Shown here piece after piece: positions 7,843 to 35,521 of a stretch of 64,000 nt of DNA. How positions within the stretch are numbered: position 1 is the first letter of the stretch; each line of letters opens with the position of its first letter. Location: positions 2,606,256-2,670,255 of the forward strand of contig OZ244113.1 of the NCBI GenBank assembly GCA_965215685.1. Direction: 5' to 3'. This stretch comes from Chitinophagales bacterium. Lineage in GTDB: Bacteria; Bacteroidota; Bacteroidia; Chitinophagales; JAHQVX01. The translations under genes and the position numbers were made by a program. The notes beneath the pieces were generated by a model, which was given only the letters and a program-made list of their open reading frames with translations, searched no databases and was not told where the DNA came from.

Positions 7843-8424
7843 ATGAAAAAACACCAAATATTACTCATTCTGGCCGGACTATTATTGTTGATCCTTTGGG
7901 TTGTACCTATGTGGAAGATAAACTTACAGGCACCTCAATACCCCGATGGGGTTGAAATGCACATCCACATTAACAAGATTGGCGGCAGTGAGCCTGGTAC
8001 ACTTCAGAACATTAACATACTGAACCACTATGTAGGCATGAAAGAGATAAAGCCTGAAAGCATTCCGGAGCTGAAAATCTTTCCATGGGTAATTATGGGC
8101 TTTATAGCTTTGGCTATTATTTGTGCTTTAATTAATAAGCGTTGGTCTTTCATTTTTTGGCCTTTGTTGTACCTGGCGGCCATCATATTTGGTATGTACG
8201 ACTTCTATCTATGGGAATTTGATTATGGCCATAACTTAGATCCCAACGCTATTATGAAATTCGATGTGGATTCTTATCAGCCACCCCTTATCGGCACTAA
8301 AAAGTTATTGAATTTTACGGCAAGTTCGTATCCGCATTGGGGAGGTTGGGCCATGATAGTTTCGTTAGCTCTTGCTGTGTGGGCTGCCGTTGTAAAATTT
8401 AAACGTACGAAGCATGGAGCTTAA
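7843..8424 (+). CDS. Small integral membrane protein, NosB-like accessory of clade II nos clusters (tentative)
   Basis: 193 aa with about 4 TM helices. Sits between nosZ/RIC and nosL. Overlaps nosL by 11 nt. Confidence 0.45.
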   Translation: MKKHQILLILAGLLLLILWVVPMWKINLQAPQYPDGVEMHIHINKIGGSEPGTLQNINILNHYVGMKEIKPESIPELKIFPWVIMGFIALAIICALINKRWSFIFWPLLYLAAIIFGMYDFYLWEFDYGHNLDPNAIMKFDVDSYQPPLIGTKKLLNFTASSYPHWGGWAMIVSLALAVWAAVVKFKRTKHGA

Positions 8425-8857
8425 TAAGGCTATTCTCATTTGCATGGCATTTCTATTTGCTTCCTGCGGTGTTAAGCCCAAACCTATCAACTACAACGAG
8501 GACCAGTGCCATGCCTGTAAAATGATAATAAGTGACAGTCGTTTTGGTGCAGAGTTGGTGACTAAAAAGGGAAAAATATACAAGTACGACGCTATAGAGT
8601 GCATGGTACCGGTAATAAGATCAAACAGCGAGGATGATTATGCGTATATTATGGTTACTGATTTCCATAAACCCGGCAAGCTGATCGATGCCACATCGGC
8701 AACCTATCTGCAAAGCGAAAATTTACCCAGCCCTATGGGCGGATGTTTAAGCGCGTACAAAGATCCTGTGGCCGGAGTAAAAGCAGAAGTGGAATTTAGT
8801 GGTGAGGTTTATAAATGGAACGAATTGAAGGAAAGTGTTAAGATGCAGTATCCATGA
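8414..8857 (+). CDS. nosL: NosL copper-chaperone lipoprotein
   Basis: Lipoprotein signal LFASCGV. About 150 aa with Cys/Met-containing motif (HACKMI). Positioned within the nos cluster. Confidence 0.7.
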   Translation: MELNKAILICMAFLFASCGVKPKPINYNEDQCHACKMIISDSRFGAELVTKKGKIYKYDAIECMVPVIRSNSEDDYAYIMVTDFHKPGKLIDATSATYLQSENLPSPMGGCLSAYKDPVAGVKAEVEFSGEVYKWNELKESVKMQYP

Positions 8858-20354: not shown

Positions 20355-20765
20355 ATGGATTTGAAAAAATTTTTACTATCCAGCATTATGGGCTGTGCCG
20401 CGCTGTTCTTACTCGGCTATCTATTTTATGCCGTGTTATTGGTCAATTTTTTTGAGAACAATGCCGGAACGGTTATTGGGGCCAGACGTACAGAACCCCA
20501 TGTAGCTGCTCTGATTGTGGGCAATTTGGCTTATGCAGCCTTTTTGGCATTTGTCTTTTTAAAATGGGCAGGTATAAGTGGGTTACGCAACGGATTGAGA
20601 GGAGGGTTAGTAATCGGCTTATTTTCTGCGCTCACTTTTGGTTTTATCTCTTATGCCACGTCCAATGCGCTTAATATGAACGGTACGTTGGTTGATGCCT
20701 TAGTTTGGACAGTAATGTCAACCATTGCCGGTGGAGTAGTTGGGGCTATTATTAAGAGAGTATAG
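20355..20765 (+). CDS. Hypothetical membrane protein (4 TM, Gly-rich helices)
   Basis: 136 aa hydrophobic ORF. No recognisable motif. Confidence 0.4.
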   Translation: MDLKKFLLSSIMGCAALFLLGYLFYAVLLVNFFENNAGTVIGARRTEPHVAALIVGNLAYAAFLAFVFLKWAGISGLRNGLRGGLVIGLFSALTFGFISYATSNALNMNGTLVDALVWTVMSTIAGGVVGAIIKRV

Positions 20766-20800
20766 CTACGAACTACGAAATACCAACTATGGGCTACAAA

Positions 20801-22324
20801 TTATAACCGCTTTAAAGCATTGATCAAAATGGCGGGTTCCAACTCTTGTTGCTGACCACCTTCCATCCACTTAACACTGAATTTTCCGCTTTCCAGCTCA
20901 CGGCTACCTATGGTTACTACGGCCGGAATGCCTTTATCGTTGGCGTATTTGAATTGCTTTTTCAGTTTAAAAGGCTCTAAATACATTTCCGCATTAATGT
21001 TATTAAATCGCAGCTTTTCGACAAAATCAATAACGGCACTTTCATATGCCTTTTCCATGTTTACTACAAGCACTTTGGTAGGGCTTTTTCGCTGAACCTT
21101 CGGAGGCCAAAGGCTTTGACTTTCCATTACATCGTACAAACGGTCTAAACCAAAAGATATACCTACACCTGAAACATCATTTAATCCGAATACAGAGGTG
21201 AGATCATCATACCTCCCGCCGCCGGAAACACTGCCAAAGCCACTATCAGGGATTACCGCTTCGAATATGGTACCTGTATAATAGCTTAGTCCGCGTGCCA
21301 GAGTTATGTCGAAAACTATTGGTTCTTTGCTTATGCTTACTGTACTCACTTTGTTCAAGAGTGATTCCATTTCGCTAATGCCTTCTTCAGCTATAGATGA
21401 TCCGGAAAGCATTTCTTTTAACTGATTTATTTTGTCTTCGTTACATGCGGAAATCTCCAGGACATGCCTAATACTTTCTTGCTGATCTTTATTGAAACTA
21501 CGGTTTTCCAACTCCTTCAACACACCATCAATTCCAATTTTATCTAACTTGTCTATGGCAATGGTCAGGTCCATAAATTTATCAGATGCATTCATGCTCT
21601 CCGCCAAACCCGCCAATATTTTTCTGTTATTTAACCTAAGCCGGTAGTTTTTCAAACCTAACCTGCGGAACACATGATCGTAGATCTGAATAAATTCAAA
21701 TTCGGCCAGCAAGCTGTTGGTGCCAATTACATCGGCATCGCACTGATAAAACTCGCGGTAGCGGCCTTTTTGCGGCCTGTCTGCCCGCCAAACCGGCTGC
21801 ATTTGGTAACGCTTAAATGGAAATGTAATATCATTGCGGTGTTGGGCCACGTAGCGCGCGAAGGGGACGGTAAGGTCGTAGCGGAGAGCCTTGAATGCGA
21901 TATTTTTTTTAAAGACTTTAATATCAAAAAAATTGGAGAGAGATTTTGACTGGGAAGAAGAATATCTATTATTCCATCTGTAAACTGTCCAATCTGCCTC
22001 CTCAATAACTTCAAAATATCCCCCACCAGATACTTTATCAATTTCATGCATTTCCTTGAGAAACTGCTTGATTACTTTATCATCAAGAATTTGGTTGCTG
22101 AGAAAATCTCCGCTATCCAATACGCTAAATAGTAGCTGTTCCCCCTCATCACCATATTTTCCGGTAAGCACATCTAACTTTTCCATAGTAGGCGTTTCAA
22201 TAGGTTCAAATCCAAATAACTCATATACTGCTTTGACGGTATTCAGAATAAAATACCTTTTGTTGAGCTGTTCGGCATTGAAATCGCGCGTGCCTTTTGG
22301 TATGGAAGGATGAATTTTAGACAT
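20801..22324 (-). CDS. hisS: Histidyl-tRNA synthetase
   Basis: N-terminal PKGTRDF motif. Class II aaRS motifs. Anticodon-binding C-terminal domain. Confidence 0.9.
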   Translation of the reverse strand: MSKIHPSIPKGTRDFNAEQLNKRYFILNTVKAVYELFGFEPIETPTMEKLDVLTGKYGDEGEQLLFSVLDSGDFLSNQILDDKVIKQFLKEMHEIDKVSGGGYFEVIEEADWTVYRWNNRYSSSQSKSLSNFFDIKVFKKNIAFKALRYDLTVPFARYVAQHRNDITFPFKRYQMQPVWRADRPQKGRYREFYQCDADVIGTNSLLAEFEFIQIYDHVFRRLGLKNYRLRLNNRKILAGLAESMNASDKFMDLTIAIDKLDKIGIDGVLKELENRSFNKDQQESIRHVLEISACNEDKINQLKEMLSGSSIAEEGISEMESLLNKVSTVSISKEPIVFDITLARGLSYYTGTIFEAVIPDSGFGSVSGGGRYDDLTSVFGLNDVSGVGISFGLDRLYDVMESQSLWPPKVQRKSPTKVLVVNMEKAYESAVIDFVEKLRFNNINAEMYLEPFKLKKQFKYANDKGIPAVVTIGSRELESGKFSVKWMEGGQQQELEPAILINALKRL

Positions 22325-22686
22325 AAAGTGCGAAGATAGTAAGGATTACGTGGTAGAAGTACTATCTTTATACATGAAATTAATTTTCAATATTAATGAA
22401 AATTGAAACACTTGTAGTTATCGCGGGAATCGTGCAAATACTCATTTCATTGGGGTGCATCGTCCTGATTTTGGTTGACACTTTTTTACATTATCCACAG
22501 CGGGATAAGATAGCTGTGTTTTGTAAAGCTAAAATTATATTTTTTCTTTGTGTCATTCAGGCTAAACGGATTCGGGCTCTGACGTGGGGATGTCAACTCG
22601 ATAGGGATAACCTGATGCGATGGAGTTTTATACTTCTCAAAGGTCATCTAAAAGATGACCTTTAAAGAATAATAACTTCAGCGCTT

Positions 22687-23649
22687 TTATGCCTTAATAA
22701 ATTCCCCTTCCACTTTCTTTCGATAATTTTTCCAATGCTTTTTAAGAACTCCTGTCATATTATATGCCTGGTTTGGTGTATGCCAATCAATACTTCTGTG
22801 TGGTCTGTTTTCATTATAAAACCGGATGATTTTTTTGATTTGTTGTTTTCCTTGCTTTAAGCTGTTGAAGCTAAGTTGTTTATCGTCTGTAAACTCCTCT
22901 TTTATGGTTTTATTTACTCTTTCTGCTATAGGGTTTTCCAAAGGGTCGCTTTGTTCTGTCATACTAAGCAGAAAATGATTTTTCTTTAATATCCGCACAT
23001 ATTCATTGCAACAATATTGCACCCCTCTGTCTGAGTGATGAATACATCCTTTTTGCCTGTCTTTGGTATTTGACAAAGACATATTCAGACAAGATAATGC
23101 ACCAGCAGCTGCTAAGCTTTTGCTTAAGCAAAAGCCGATAATTTTTCTTGAATATACTTCAGTGGTTAAAAACAGATAAGAAAAACTGTCTTCTTGGTTC
23201 AACCAAATATAGGTGATGTCTGATACCCAAATTTCATTTGCCCTCTCAGGTTGTATCGTTTTGACCAAATTAGGGTATTTATGATAACGATGATAGCTAT
23301 CTGTTGTTGACACCTTGCGTTTTCTTAGTTTTTTCAATAACCCATGTCGCCGCAGTATATCATAAAATTTATCTCTTCCTATTTTTATCTGATGTTTTTT
23401 AAAATCTGATTGCAAGGCCTTTAGTAAGTTTCTGCCACTTCCTCGCTTCCATATCTGGCGCTTTTGTTCTATTAGCCCAACTATTAAATATTCATCAAAT
23501 GATTGCTTTTCCAACCTACACAAAGACTTGTAGTAAGCCTGCCTGCTGTAACCAAATAATGAACATAGTGCTTTTATTTTCGAATCAGGCCTTTGCCTTT
23601 TAAATGCTTCAATAGTTGGGCTCCATACTTTTTTTAATGTCCAATTCAA
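22687..23649 (-). CDS. IS3-family transposase OrfB (integrase/DDE core)
   Basis: 320 aa rve-type core (HSDRGVQY, D..D..E spacing). Begins with TTG in the overlap with orfA. Confidence 0.8.
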   Translation of the reverse strand: MNWTLKKVWSPTIEAFKRQRPDSKIKALCSLFGYSRQAYYKSLCRLEKQSFDEYLIVGLIEQKRQIWKRGSGRNLLKALQSDFKKHQIKIGRDKFYDILRRHGLLKKLRKRKVSTTDSYHRYHKYPNLVKTIQPERANEIWVSDITYIWLNQEDSFSYLFLTTEVYSRKIIGFCLSKSLAAAGALSCLNMSLSNTKDRQKGCIHHSDRGVQYCCNEYVRILKKNHFLLSMTEQSDPLENPIAERVNKTIKEEFTDDKQLSFNSLKQGKQQIKKIIRFYNENRPHRSIDWHTPNQAYNMTGVLKKHWKNYRKKVEGEFIKA

Positions 23650-23980
23650 GCTGAGCTTCGGCTACTTCTATCATTTTCTCCCATAGATCAGCTCGTAGAT
23701 TAGCTTGATATACCTCTTGTTCTAATTGACGAATACGAGCTTGCATTTGTTCATACTCCTTTGAACGCTTCATACTAGTTAAGTCTTTGATCTTAGAACG
23801 TGGGTTTCGATAATCGTCATTACCACTAAACTTACGCATCCAGTACAAAATTGCGCAATTACTCCTAATTCCATAAACAAGCCTCGCTTCTTCTTTGCTG
23901 TACTTGCCTGATAATACTTCTTGAACCACCTTCCATTTAAATTCCTCTGTATAGTGTTTCGACTCTTTTTCTTTCAGCAT
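23609..23980 (-). CDS. IS3-family transposase OrfA (HTH/leucine zipper)
   Basis: 123 aa. HTH. Heptad Leu repeats (LEQEVYQANLRADLWEKMIEV). Confidence 0.8.
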   Translation of the reverse strand: MLKEKESKHYTEEFKWKVVQEVLSGKYSKEEARLVYGIRSNCAILYWMRKFSGNDDYRNPRSKIKDLTSMKRSKEYEQMQARIRQLEQEVYQANLRADLWEKMIEVAEAQLELDIKKSMEPNY

Positions 23981-24548
23981 TTAATCCTGATTTAAGTTGA
24001 CTTATCCACAATTATTCTGTCAACCTATTTCAGGACTATACACTATTTCAGGACTATACAATGAAGTGATTTGTTCATGCTGATCCCGCAGGTGCGGGAG
24101 AAGGATCTTATACTACGCTGTTTTAATTTTCGGTTTCAAGTTGATTCGCCTTCTCTCTAACCGGCGGTGAAAACACCGCCCGGGGCAGCATTTTTATTTT
24201 TGACATGAGTGTGTCGCTCCTCCGGAGCTTTTTACATATAATTGTTTAGCCGTTACAGAGGTTGCGCCCCTCCGGGGCTGGGGATTAGTTTATAGTGTGA
24301 AAAGTTAGCAATAGCTACGGCTATTCCAAAATTTTCTTCATCGTCTAGCCAAAAAAACTTCTGCCCGCCCGGATGAACCCCGTAAGTACTGGGTTCGGAC
24401 GGGCCCACCCGAACTTACCATTCGCTACGGGCGGGCTTTTATTCAGGAATCTATCAAGTAGAACTGGTATAAACCGGCCTTATCCATAAATCGGTATTGG
24501 ATATTCTAAAAGCTTTCTCTAACGTAATCAACTGGGACGAGATGAAAT

Positions 24549-27494
24549 CTACTTGTTCGGAAAATTAGAAATGATTCGTCTTAAACTTGGTGATGAATTC
24601 CAACTCTCAAATTTGTTCTTAACTAAATCTGAAATGGTAAAACCATATTTGGTCACTAACTCCTTATGTATCTCTAACATTTTTTTTGTATTGGTAAGGG
24701 GCTTGTCGGGCATATTGACAATCATACTATTCAATAAAACCAAAAGTTCAGCATCGGTATTAGGATTAGTACGGAACAACCTTTCAGAGAGTATGTCGGT
24801 GAACCTTTTTAGAGGAAAATAATTCTTGCTCAGCATATAACCTATGTTTTCTCCCAGCAACCTATTATCAACCAATTTTAATTCGGTAAATCTTAGCCAA
24901 ACAGCTGCTGATAAGTCCCTTGCGGTTCTGTCGGAATACAGTAGTGCGTTTGCTAAATATAAATGAGAGCCATTCTTTAATGGAGCTTGTAACTCTAATA
25001 AAGTTTCGTTTACACTCGCAACCAATTTAGCTTCATTTTTACCTCCGCTATCCTTAAGGTTAAATATCTTTTCCGATAATCGGGTCAGGAATGGTTCAAA
25101 GTAATTAGGGAAAAGAAGCAACAATCTGGCAATATCATTATGTTCACTAGTTTGCCATTGATAATTGAACTGGATATTATCATAATTGCTGACTACCTTC
25201 GGTAGAGACTTTTTAAATACCTTCAAAATTTTTCTTACCAGGGACTCTTTATTCTCCTTAATATTTGTACTGGTTACCAACTCTTCGCGTACTCCTTTTT
25301 TCTTGATTCTCTTATATGTTCGCCCGGAATAATCAAAATCTATGTAGGTGTATTCTACTTCTTTTAGTTCAAAATCAACCTTGCCGGCATAGTATTTAAG
25401 GTTATTAAAATTTGAATATTCCTTAAGGGGAAACGCCTCTTCATTCCTGTTAAAAGTTATCCATGAATGGAGTATAGGGGCTTCATAGGTTGTGTTGCTC
25501 GGTTCTCCTCTCTTAGTATTAAAACCAACCATTAAAGCCTGCTTTACAGGTCCATTTTTGAGAGATGCTTCAACTTTTTCTATGGCAGATTCTTTTACAT
25601 CGACTATTAATCTGGATAACGCTATTTGAAAATCAACACTAAACGGCAGTTTGCCATATTCCTCATATTGTTTCAGCCGACCAAGGAAGGTATCAAGGTC
25701 TATTAAACAAGGGTAGTGAGTAGGAGTTGAAAGAAATTGTAATTTAATATTTCTACGCACCAATGTAAGGAAGTTGAACATGTGCTGCTTAGGTATATTA
25801 TAAATCATTGAAGAATAAGCCCACCTTTCGAGACCGTGAATTTGCGTGTCAAAAAATTTATTCTCCTTTGCCTTTCTCCTTTCCTCGTTAACTTCTTTCC
25901 GGTAATATGATTTAAGATTTTTACCGGAATCAGGATACTTCTCAATGAGATGATTTACCAGACTAACAATGGTAGCTGCCATCATTACATCTAAGTATCC
26001 ATCTGTACTCCGCATGTCTTTTTGCAAAAGGTTTATGGCTCTTTGCAAAACAGGCTGTAATTGATCAAGTACCTGATCTGAGTTAAGTTGATCTTGAAAT
26101 TTCAGATAGTAATGTGGCAATAAGTAAAAGTCAATACTGCGGTTATTATCTAAAATTTGACTTAGAAAGAAGATAAAATCATCTATCGTTTTCACCCCAT
26201 CTTCTATTGGAACAGGTTCTGAAAAATCTGGCCTGAAACTTTCACTTTCTAACCCGGTTTGATCAGGTGTCGATTCAGGTATATTATCGTCCAATTCCGT
26301 AATTTCTTTAAGAAATGGATTTAACATCTGCTTGGGCTCGCTAAAAAGATAAGAACTATATAACGCAATCTGTTCTAACAATTCCTTATTCTTATTGTTT
26401 CCGTGTTTCACTATAAGTTTGGCGGTTCTAAGCTGTATATCTTCCTTTTCGTGCACTAAAGCTTGTGATGCTAATGTGGTTATTTGACCTTTGGATTTTG
26501 GTTTTTGAACGGCCACCTTGTCAAGCAAGATAAGAGTAGATTTTACTGTGGATATTACGTCAGATGCTAGTAAAACTGGCACTTGGTCCAAAAACAGTTT
26601 GTGATTGAATTTTGGTTCGGCAACAATTTTTTTTACATTTTGTAAGGCATAGTTTTTAGCCTTACTATGCTCAGATGTTAGAATAAGGTTAAATGCCTCC
26701 TGCTGGTTAATAATTTCCTCAATAGTTGGCTTTAAGAATTTATGTAAGTCGATAAACCAACCGGCATTGGCTCTGCTAAAGTTCCTGTTGGCAGTTAAAA
26801 GACTTTCTTTTAAAACTCTGTTCCTATCAATTTTTCCTGAATCTGTAAAGTCTTTTATTGTTTGTTTCCAAATGTTAACTGTTTTTGGTTTATTATTTCC
26901 AATCCAGGTTTCATCATGCCATTTCATTCCTGTATCGTCTGAAAACAACCACCAGAAATGTTTATTGAGTGTTTCGGGATACTTTAAGAGCATTTCCGGT
27001 TTAATGAGTGCGTAACTTTTCTTTACTTCATCATAATGCCTTTCTATGATCGACCTTGGCAAGGTTCTTACGATAAATTCTCTCTGTAAGGTTATGTATC
27101 CTTTTCTTTCATACTCCATAGCCTTTATATAATCTAAAAAGCCCCATCTTTGTGAAGTACCAGAAAACCACTTCGGACAATACGCCTCAAGTATTTCATC
27201 AAGCATACCTGATTTAAATATCCTATGGAATCCGAAATTCTGCATTTTCTTTGCCGGATGAATAAAAAAGCGAGCAATATCTCTTAGAACTTCCTGTTCA
27301 TCGGTACAAGATCGTTCTATGATATACCGGTTCCTGACCACCTTATGTTCAACTTTAAAATGCTCCTTGAACTCATCTTCAAAAATTTTAGAGAGCTCTC
27401 TTCTTTCCTGTTCGGTTATATTTTTGAAAAACGGGATTATATTGTCACGTTCCTCATTAAGGATTATAGATTTTAAATCGGAAATTTTGCTCAC
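24549..27494 (-). CDS. Large uncharacterized protein (981 aa), partner of the SWIM zinc-finger protein; possibly a DUF4132/MolR-like family member
   Basis: No catalytic motif recognisable by eye. Predicted soluble and largely alpha-helical. Start overlaps the stop of the upstream SWIM gene (ATGA), indicating translational coupling. Confidence 0.6.
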   Translation of the reverse strand: MSKISDLKSIILNEERDNIIPFFKNITEQERRELSKIFEDEFKEHFKVEHKVVRNRYIIERSCTDEQEVLRDIARFFIHPAKKMQNFGFHRIFKSGMLDEILEAYCPKWFSGTSQRWGFLDYIKAMEYERKGYITLQREFIVRTLPRSIIERHYDEVKKSYALIKPEMLLKYPETLNKHFWWLFSDDTGMKWHDETWIGNNKPKTVNIWKQTIKDFTDSGKIDRNRVLKESLLTANRNFSRANAGWFIDLHKFLKPTIEEIINQQEAFNLILTSEHSKAKNYALQNVKKIVAEPKFNHKLFLDQVPVLLASDVISTVKSTLILLDKVAVQKPKSKGQITTLASQALVHEKEDIQLRTAKLIVKHGNNKNKELLEQIALYSSYLFSEPKQMLNPFLKEITELDDNIPESTPDQTGLESESFRPDFSEPVPIEDGVKTIDDFIFFLSQILDNNRSIDFYLLPHYYLKFQDQLNSDQVLDQLQPVLQRAINLLQKDMRSTDGYLDVMMAATIVSLVNHLIEKYPDSGKNLKSYYRKEVNEERRKAKENKFFDTQIHGLERWAYSSMIYNIPKQHMFNFLTLVRRNIKLQFLSTPTHYPCLIDLDTFLGRLKQYEEYGKLPFSVDFQIALSRLIVDVKESAIEKVEASLKNGPVKQALMVGFNTKRGEPSNTTYEAPILHSWITFNRNEEAFPLKEYSNFNNLKYYAGKVDFELKEVEYTYIDFDYSGRTYKRIKKKGVREELVTSTNIKENKESLVRKILKVFKKSLPKVVSNYDNIQFNYQWQTSEHNDIARLLLLFPNYFEPFLTRLSEKIFNLKDSGGKNEAKLVASVNETLLELQAPLKNGSHLYLANALLYSDRTARDLSAAVWLRFTELKLVDNRLLGENIGYMLSKNYFPLKRFTDILSERLFRTNPNTDAELLVLLNSMIVNMPDKPLTNTKKMLEIHKELVTKYGFTISDLVKNKFESWNSSPSLRRIISNFPNK

Positions 27495-34841: not shown

Positions 34842-35174
34842 TTAACGGGCACAATGCATACATCGCAAACTTTCAGGCATGTACATAAGTCGTTGTACGG
34901 CTATGGATTTGCCGCAGGATATACAAGTGCCGAAGTCCGGCTCATCAACCTTTGATAGTGCACTCTCCAGTTTCTTAAGTTTAGCTTGTGCCATGCGTAA
35001 ACTGTTTTCCAACACAGCTTTATTGTTGATAGCTTCCATACGGCTTATTCTACCATACGCATCATCGGGAGAAATGGGTTGGGTTTGTTCCTCTAACTCA
35101 AGAATATCGAGTTTTACCTGCTCAATCTTTTCCTTAATCTGATCCTTCAGTTTGGTTCTTTCATCCTTTGTCAT
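34842..35174 (-). CDS. DksA/TraR family C4-type zinc-finger protein
   Basis: Coiled-coil N-terminal part. C-terminal CISCGKSI...CMHC four-Cys finger. Confidence 0.7.
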   Translation of the reverse strand: MTKDERTKLKDQIKEKIEQVKLDILELEEQTQPISPDDAYGRISRMEAINNKAVLENSLRMAQAKLKKLESALSKVDEPDFGTCISCGKSIAVQRLMYMPESLRCMHCAR

Positions 35175-35521
35175 AAATCTAATTTTTTTATATCATTTTC
35201 AGTTTGAAGAAAAGTGATTAGACAAGTAGTTACAACCATTAAAAGTAAACCGATGGTAAGAACGGAGTAATTATTGAATTTTGTTAAAAAGGTTACCAGG
35301 GCGAGCACGTAGAAAGGTATGCTCCAGGCTATCAATCGTTTAGCGGCAACTTGTTGTGCAAAATCCCAATTACGTTGATTTTTCATGGCTCGTTTGGTTC
35401 TGTACCCATAGAGCGGATTTATCTTTTTAGGTGGTTTTTTTCGAAGTATGTAGCCGGCCAGAAAGTAGCAGATTCCCAATAGAAAAAATAAAACCGGAAA
35501 GGCAAGCTGATCAAAGTTCAT
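35171..35521 (-). CDS. Small membrane protein (3 TM)
   Basis: Hydrophobic 116-aa ORF coupled between uvrA and the DksA-like gene. Confidence 0.45.
   Translation of the reverse strand: MNFDQLAFPVLFFLLGICYFLAGYILRKKPPKKINPLYGYRTKRAMKNQRNWDFAQQVAAKRLIAWSIPFYVLALVTFLTKFNNYSVLTIGLLLMVVTTCLITFLQTENDIKKLDL

Follow-up and report, generated by a model that had tools for sequence, protein, structure and literature searches.

A probable one-base contraction of the poly-A slippery run in an IS3-family insertion sequence with orfB at +1

Introduction

Canonical elements of the IS3 family, e.g. IS911, IS3 and IS150, use programmed −1 ribosomal frameshifting at an A_AAA_AAG heptamer. Another arrangement is described for the IS1447 subgroup of the same family, in which orfB is at +1 relative to orfA, the junction carries an A9 run and OrfAB is formed by loss of one A (Liu et al. 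2018; PMC6211511). Each of two one-A length changes was found in about 16% of the IS1447 cDNAs and an A7 run sufficed (PMC6211511). The +1 arrangement and a run of A7–A9 are conserved in 34 homologues, mostly from Firmicutes, with multiple active copies (PMC6211511). The subgroup is also marked by a stem loop next to the slippage-prone run, by an A run that varies in length in cDNA but not in genomic DNA, and by production of the OrfAB protein.

Related cases are found outside of this subgroup. The pairing of a +1 with a −1 cluster in a transposase family is a signature of transcriptional realignment, and transposases as well as dnaX show an interchange between PRF and PTR (Antonov et al. 2013; PMC3711429). 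The term ‘pseudo-pseudogenes’ has been used for A-run frameshift mutations for which a rescue takes place in the mRNA (Baranov et al. 2005; PMC1088944). Common to the cases in PMC1088944 and PMC3711429 is that a poly-A site can be used in three ways, i.e. for ribosomal frameshifting, for transcriptional slippage and for replication slippage.

The locus treated here is an IS3-family insertion sequence of 1587 bp at positions 22456..24042 on the minus strand of a 64-kb window, the window being the whole stretch of DNA that was analyzed. Judged by its sequence, it is an ordinary member of the family, in which the slippery run has a lesion (or miscall) of one base, and represents no new recoding mechanism. 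Earlier work already covers this phenomenon, as well as the other route of rescue and the position of orfB at +1.

Organization of the element

As in canonical IS3 elements (IS911, IS3, IS150), an orfA of the HTH type overlaps an orfB that carries the DDE (rve) domain, the terminal inverted repeats end in TG...CA and the total length is ~1.6 kb. The relatives of the window element also share with the canonical elements the 3–4 bp target duplications and an in-frame A_AAA_AAG with orfB at −1. Unlike canonical IS3, the window copy is one A short, which takes the heptamer out of phase and puts orfB at +1; it also has no detectable target duplication and displays an extra 18-bp tip at the left terminal inverted repeat (IRL).

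orfA as now read spans positions 23609..23980 on the minus strand and is predicted to encode 123 amino acids, of which those after the A run, SMEPNY, form a C-terminal tail that is not homologous. orfB, at positions 22687..23649 on the same strand, is an open frame of 320 aa from a TTG. The two-part composition of the family, with HTH at the N terminus (orfA) and the DDE/rve catalytic domain at the C terminus (orfB), is found in the window copy. Pfam analysis of orfB shows rve (2.5e-17) and rve_3 (1.8e-15), and that of orfA shows a weak HTH_Tnp_1 match of 18 bits, which is below the cut-off of 24.1. The DDE motifs of orfB are WVSDITY (D144), HHSDRG (D207) and AERVNKTIK (E243), and the three acidic residues do not vary among the 19 homologues that were aligned with it.

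A histidyl-tRNA synthetase-like open reading frame at positions 20801–22324, on the same strand as the element, has its start ~130 bp downstream of the tip of the right terminal inverted repeat (IRR). Just outside of the IS on its other side, at about 24180–24300 (minus strand), the sequence holds a pair of GC-rich motifs that resemble each other, CCCCGGAGGGGCGCAACCTCTG and GCTCCGGAGGAGCGACACACTC. One of these scored as terminator-like on the plus strand (24216–24228), and the pair may be a small intergenic repeat. A scan for terminators gave four, where 1.3 are expected, none at an informative position. A promoter scan was at the chance level (seven found, 6.1 expected), and an Rfam search of positions 20500–25000 gave no match at E ≤ 0.1.

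The orfA–orfB junction

An A7 run at positions 23629..23635 (minus strand) is the only long homopolymer in the overlap of the two open reading frames, and it begins in phase 0 of orfA. The frame difference, (23980 − 23649) mod 3, equals 1, which places orfB at +1 (equivalently −2) relative to orfA. This bears out the preliminary description, which had put orfB one nucleotide downstream of orfA (+1 or −2) across an A7 tract. The orfA frame reads across the run as ATT AAA AAA AGT ATG GAG CCC AAC TAT TGA. The third frame was said to hold a TAA where canonical −1 slippage would land, and this TAA is indeed present at positions 23636–23634, where it overlaps the start of the run. Past the run the −1 frame is open for just 19 codons (KKYGAQLLKHLKGKGLIRK, then a stop codon), so that a −1 shift cannot reach orfB. 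This short frame, at positions 23574..23633 (minus strand), is the tail of the ancestral orfA, now out of frame, and its stop column is shared with the orfA stop of relatives. The TTG ‘start’ of orfB at position 23649 owes its existence to the change of frame, and homology with relatives begins at the A run.

Two structures near the run are mentioned here. An inverted repeat of 15 nt, 93% complementary (AGCCCAACTATTAAA and TTCAATAGTTGGGCT), joins positions 23608–23622 and 23474–23488; the first arm is just downstream of the A run and the second lies in orfB, 119 nt further on, which makes the pair a candidate long-range frameshift stimulator. Upstream of the run, within orfA, the nt sequence at positions 23646–23708 (minus strand) displays a stem loop, UCAAGCU...AGCUUGA, with −18.8 kcal/mol and z = −2.55, which ends 10 nt before the A7. 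Conservation of this stem loop was not found in 11 relatives.

Comparison with related elements

Related loci were fetched from species-representative genomes (31) and from metagenomes (80), and eight contigs encoding the three closest protein matches were looked up in addition. The reading frames on either side of the homologous point were compared for every locus that has its junction on the contig. The relatives are found in Bacteroidota genomes and metagenome-assembled genomes, with a few others. The protein with an OrfB identical to that of the window copy (P0001) is recorded once, and its cluster at 90% identity has one member on one contig; the comparison therefore rests on relatives at ≤69% OrfB identity and not on sister copies of the window IS.

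orfB is at −1 in all 58 related elements with a readable junction, at 30%–69% OrfB identity. Fifty of these junctions display A6G or A8G (one has A7C) in the orfA frame, 44 of the 50 being at 42% OrfB identity or more. The eight further junctions belong to the closest protein matches (67%–69% identity) and are likewise all at −1, six with ATT-A8-G and two with ATC-A9-T. Among the 16 closest relatives (58%–69% identity), 14 have ATT-A8-G or ATC-A8-G and two have ATC-A9-T, which reads A_AAA_AAA. In ATT/ATC-A8-G the last six A residues and the next G (position 23628 in the window) form the canonical A_AAA_AAG heptamer in the orfA frame. More distant relatives show xGA-AAA-AAG or CTA-AAA-AAG, i.e. 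A_AAA_AAG in the orfA frame, with one A7C. The preliminary description had named other copies with an A8 or A6 run and orfB at −1 as the observation that would mark this copy as a frameshift pseudogene or a sequencing error, and the relatives show that state, with 58 of 58 at −1 and 14 of the 16 closest with A8-G.

The A9 runs of the relatives L118 (positions 700–720) and L119 (positions 508–528), both ATC-A9-T, are long enough for ribosomal and for transcriptional slippage, and orfB is still at −1. The A7C case is in L023 at about positions 2495–2510, where the sequence reads CGA-AAA-AAC, again with orfB at −1.

The most direct comparison is with L032. Its junction is ATTAAAAAAAAGTATGGAGCCCAAC and that of the window copy is ATTAAAAAAAGTATGGAGCCCAAC; the two are the same but for one extra A in L032. 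Thus ATT, the A run and GTATGGAGCCCAAC form an identical stretch, the one extra A aside.

When one A is inserted into the window sequence in silico, OrfA becomes 135 aa in length and ends in DIKKKYGAQLLKHLKGKGLIRK. Complete OrfA sequences of relatives are 133–136 aa in length and end in DIKKKYGAQLLKHIDDKTDP (L034), DIKKKLGAQLLKDLSEIKKRPE (L037) and DIKKKYGAQPSKRSNEARRRQK (L032), and the repaired tail matches those of L034, L037 and L118. In the nucleotide alignment the restored frame ends at the very column that holds the TAA or TAG orfA stop of relatives. The SMEPNY tail of the present 123-aa OrfA has no counterpart in relatives, and the TGA that now ends orfA is out of frame in relatives that have the same CTATTGAAG sequence. 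The addition of one A also restores orfB to −1 and the heptamer to the orfA frame. The fusion that a −1 shift would then produce is 431 aa in length and matches the NCBIfam model NF033516, ‘IS3 family transposase’, end to end (model positions 1–368 of 369) with 232.8 bits, the cut-off being 160.

The A8 run and −1 arrangement of the relatives, together with the homologous OrfA that is recovered by the repair, indicate that the A7/+1 state is a one-base contraction of the canonical slippery site. This state is very likely derived and non-programmed, whether it is real or an artefact. An orfB at −1 with a heptamer of the A6G type in the orfA frame, otherwise a feature of the family, is not found in the window copy. 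This is due to the single-base lesion and not to a different architecture.

The explanation preferred here is a real contraction from A8 to A7 by a slippage mutation in the genome, which would leave the copy defective or leaky; its probability is put at roughly 65%. The element is a member of a Bacteroidota-centered clade of IS3-family insertion sequences in which OrfA would be made by normal translation and OrfAB by programmed −1 ribosomal frameshifting on A_AAA_AAG, the heptamer lying within the A8 run and the following G in the closest relatives. In the window copy the run would have shrunk by one A, most likely by slippage during replication of the genome. This has three effects. orfA enters a foreign six-codon tail and stops 12 codons early; the heptamer is no longer in the X_XXY_YYZ phase of the orfA frame; and orfB is at +1, so that the −1 shift of the family reaches no further than the 19 codons that are left of the old orfA tail. 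The formation of OrfAB would then need slippage of RNA polymerase on the A7 template. Loss of one A would give a direct fusion of 430 aa (...DIKKVWSP...), and gain of one A would give an A8 mRNA in which normal −1 frameshifting is restored. Slippage at the DNA level could also revert the copy.

Of the three explanations offered in the preliminary description, i.e. transcriptional slippage, +1 ribosomal frameshifting and a 1-nt indel that inactivated the copy, it is the third that agrees with the relatives. The A8/−1 state of the relatives supports the indel, with the copy defective or at best leaky. Against this explanation, the element is intact apart from the missing A, as would be expected no less from an error of sequencing or from selection that still acts than from a mutation of very recent date. 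In addition an A7 run is enough for productive transcriptional slippage in IS1447 (PMC6211511), and the term defective may thus overstate the effect.

Frameshifting and slippage at the A7 run

Programmed +1 (or −2) ribosomal frameshifting on AAA_AAA_A would have the P-site tRNA-Lys slip forward by one base into the orfB frame. As read from the sequence, this tRNA could re-pair perfectly at +1 within the A run. The usual +1 sites, e.g. that of prfB, depend on an A-site codon that is slow or rare, or else on a stop codon. Features of the prfB type, i.e. a slow or stop A-site codon that is conserved among homologues, are not found at the window junction. The codon that follows is AGT, which the window uses more than any other serine codon (15 per 1000, giving it rank 28 among 61); there is no conserved flanking stimulator, and the arrangement is present in none of the relatives. 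A search for a conserved downstream frameshift stimulator gave an RNAalifold consensus of only −0.4 kcal/mol and a window fold of z = +0.43, and no downstream stem loop or pseudoknot conserved in the clade was found. With the usual signal absent, +1 ribosomal frameshifting, the second of the earlier suggestions, is considered highly improbable.

The remaining suggestion, a fusion by transcriptional slippage with loss of one A, has to be divided. As a leaky rescue it is possible; nothing points to it as a selected mechanism, and none of the 58 relatives has orfB at +1. Programmed slippage of the IS1447 type would drop one A in some transcripts and give a 430-aa OrfAB by an evolved mechanism. 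An orfB at +1 with a run of at least seven A residues at the junction is exactly the IS1447 arrangement, and an A6 mRNA would encode ...DIKKVWSPTIEAF..., which is one lysine shorter than the canonical fusion. The stem loop upstream of the run (z = −2.55) is particular to the window copy, which could be counted in favor of such a mechanism; however it is not conserved and it ends 10 nt before the run. The +1 arrangement is absent from all 58 relatives, including the closest at 58%–69% identity, and no sister copy of the element is on record. In addition the old orfA tail and its stop codon are still recognizable in the disused frame, which points to a recent change rather than an adapted state. 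An evolved slippage mechanism is thus quite unlikely. Unlike IS1447, where the +1 state and the A7–A9 run are conserved, the clade of the window element has a single copy with the +1 state and is otherwise −1 throughout, the comparison with IS1447 being made by description.

Transcriptional slippage is the only plausible route to OrfAB in the present copy, and it is plausible as a possible leak and not as the mechanism of the element. The case resembles the pseudo-pseudogenes and the PRF/PTR interchange in that a frameshift mutation in an A run can be partly corrected in the mRNA by slippage of RNA polymerase. The published cases (PMC1088944, PMC3711429) however lengthen the run to A9, which is more slippery, and the window copy shortens it to A7; rescue should therefore be weaker. 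It is improbable, though conceivable, that the contraction switched the element from ribosomal −1 frameshifting to RNA-polymerase slippage on A7 and left it alive.

The movement of related elements can be read from the P0003 element, which has an A8 run and is present in at least three different flanking contexts. This indicates that the copies with A8 are the ones that move.

Mutation or assembly error

The contraction could also be an artefact of sequencing or assembly, in which case an A8 run of the genome was read one A too short and the element is intact and uses −1 frameshifting as is normal in the family. A homopolymer is a classic site of error. The difference from the state of the family is exactly one base in an 8-nt homopolymer, and no further damage is seen in the element, as both open reading frames are open and the DDE residues and both inverted repeats are present.

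The other A/T runs of the window provide a measure of the error rate. There are 48 such runs in the 64-kb window, 40 of 7 nt and eight of 8 nt. Among the 47 other than the A7 run itself, no gene was found to be broken at a homopolymer, and stop-to-stop open reading frames of 982, 956 and 839 codons read straight through runs of 7–8 nt. The 0 of 47 and the long open reading frames argue for a low error rate per run. As no other gene is broken at a homopolymer, the assembly does not appear error-prone at such sites, and a real mutation is favored over an artefact. An artefact is accordingly rated as rather unlikely, and the deletion is probably real, with activity of the copy probably lost or reduced.

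The two other pairs of open reading frames in the window that overlap on the same strand were considered as homopolymer frameshifts and rejected. The frames at positions 34842–35174 and 35171–35521, with a T7 run, and those at 7843–8424 and 8414–8857 are in each case distinct genes with their own ATG starts.

Terminal inverted repeats and the left end

The element extends from the inner IRL tip (TGTATAG... at position 24042) to the IRR tip (...GATGCA at position 22456). IRL, TGTATAGTCCTGAAATAGGTTGAC, is located at positions 24019..24042 (minus strand) and is near-identical in at least 10 relatives. IRR, GTCAACCAAAATCAGGACGATGCA, is located at positions 22456..22479 (minus strand) and was placed by comparison of the terminus with relatives. 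The two form an imperfect terminal inverted repeat of 26 nt, 81% complementary, and the termini align with the TGTATAGTCCTGAAATAGGTTGAC and GTCAACC...CAGGAC....CA ends of relatives. Imperfect inverted repeats that end in 5′-TG...CA-3′, a feature of the family, are thus present in the window copy.

The outermost part of IRL is duplicated. The preliminary description had noted a tandem duplication of 16 bp in the leader; the duplication is there, but its length is 18 bp and its location is the outermost IRL rather than a leader in general. On the plus strand an exact tandem repeat, two copies of CTATTTCAGGACTATACA, is found at positions 24025–24042 and 24043–24060, where 0.04 would be expected by chance. 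The inner copy is continuous with the remainder of IRL and can be aligned with IRR, and the outer copy (TGTATAGTCCTGAAATAG, positions 24043..24060, minus strand) is the extra one. Every relative with a readable left end has a single tip, which makes the duplication specific to the window copy. It could have come from replication slippage or could be an abortive transposition product. With the tandem tips the element has two candidate left ends, 18 bp apart.

No target duplication (a direct repeat of 3–4 bp) was found at the window copy with either candidate left end (positions 22446–22455 and 24043–24070). The flanks read ...cat before the outer IRL tip, ...tag before the inner tip and ccc... 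after IRR, with no repeat between them. Target duplications of 3–4 bp are present in the relatives L037 (CCT), L045 (CATT) and L035 (AAG), and several other relatives are without them.

An inverted internal copy of the IRL core, GTCAACTTAAATCAGGAT, is found at positions 23984..24001 (minus strand); it ends 3 nt before the ATG of orfA and pairs with IRL. The IRL core, GTCCTGAAATAGGTTGAC, and this inverted copy form a hairpin at positions 23984–24036 (minus strand), with −25.8 kcal/mol and z = −4.5. The inverted copy is kept before orfA in 10 relatives, including L032, L033, L035–L038, L040, L041 and L045, in a comparison from which the row of L115 was left out. According to the folding model, the hairpin would bury the start region in transcripts that enter from outside. 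No informative covariation was found in the hairpin across relatives, and hence the sequence could equally be a second transposase-binding site that acts at the DNA level.

Significance

For annotation, the two open reading frames should be treated as one IS3-family transposase gene with a frameshift at the slippery site, i.e. as a pseudogene or a copy of low activity. The case matters little beyond annotation. It does show the poly-A slippery site of IS3 elements as a mutational hotspot in itself, where one indel flips the frame relation from −1 to +1. If the copy is active, it would be a small natural case in which ribosomal frameshifting and transcriptional slippage replace each other, as is known for dnaX and other transposase families. 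If the switch to slippage on A7 is true, the element would be a natural snapshot of how IS3 lineages that use +1 transcriptional slippage, e.g. IS1447, may arise from ancestors with −1 PRF by a single poly-A indel.
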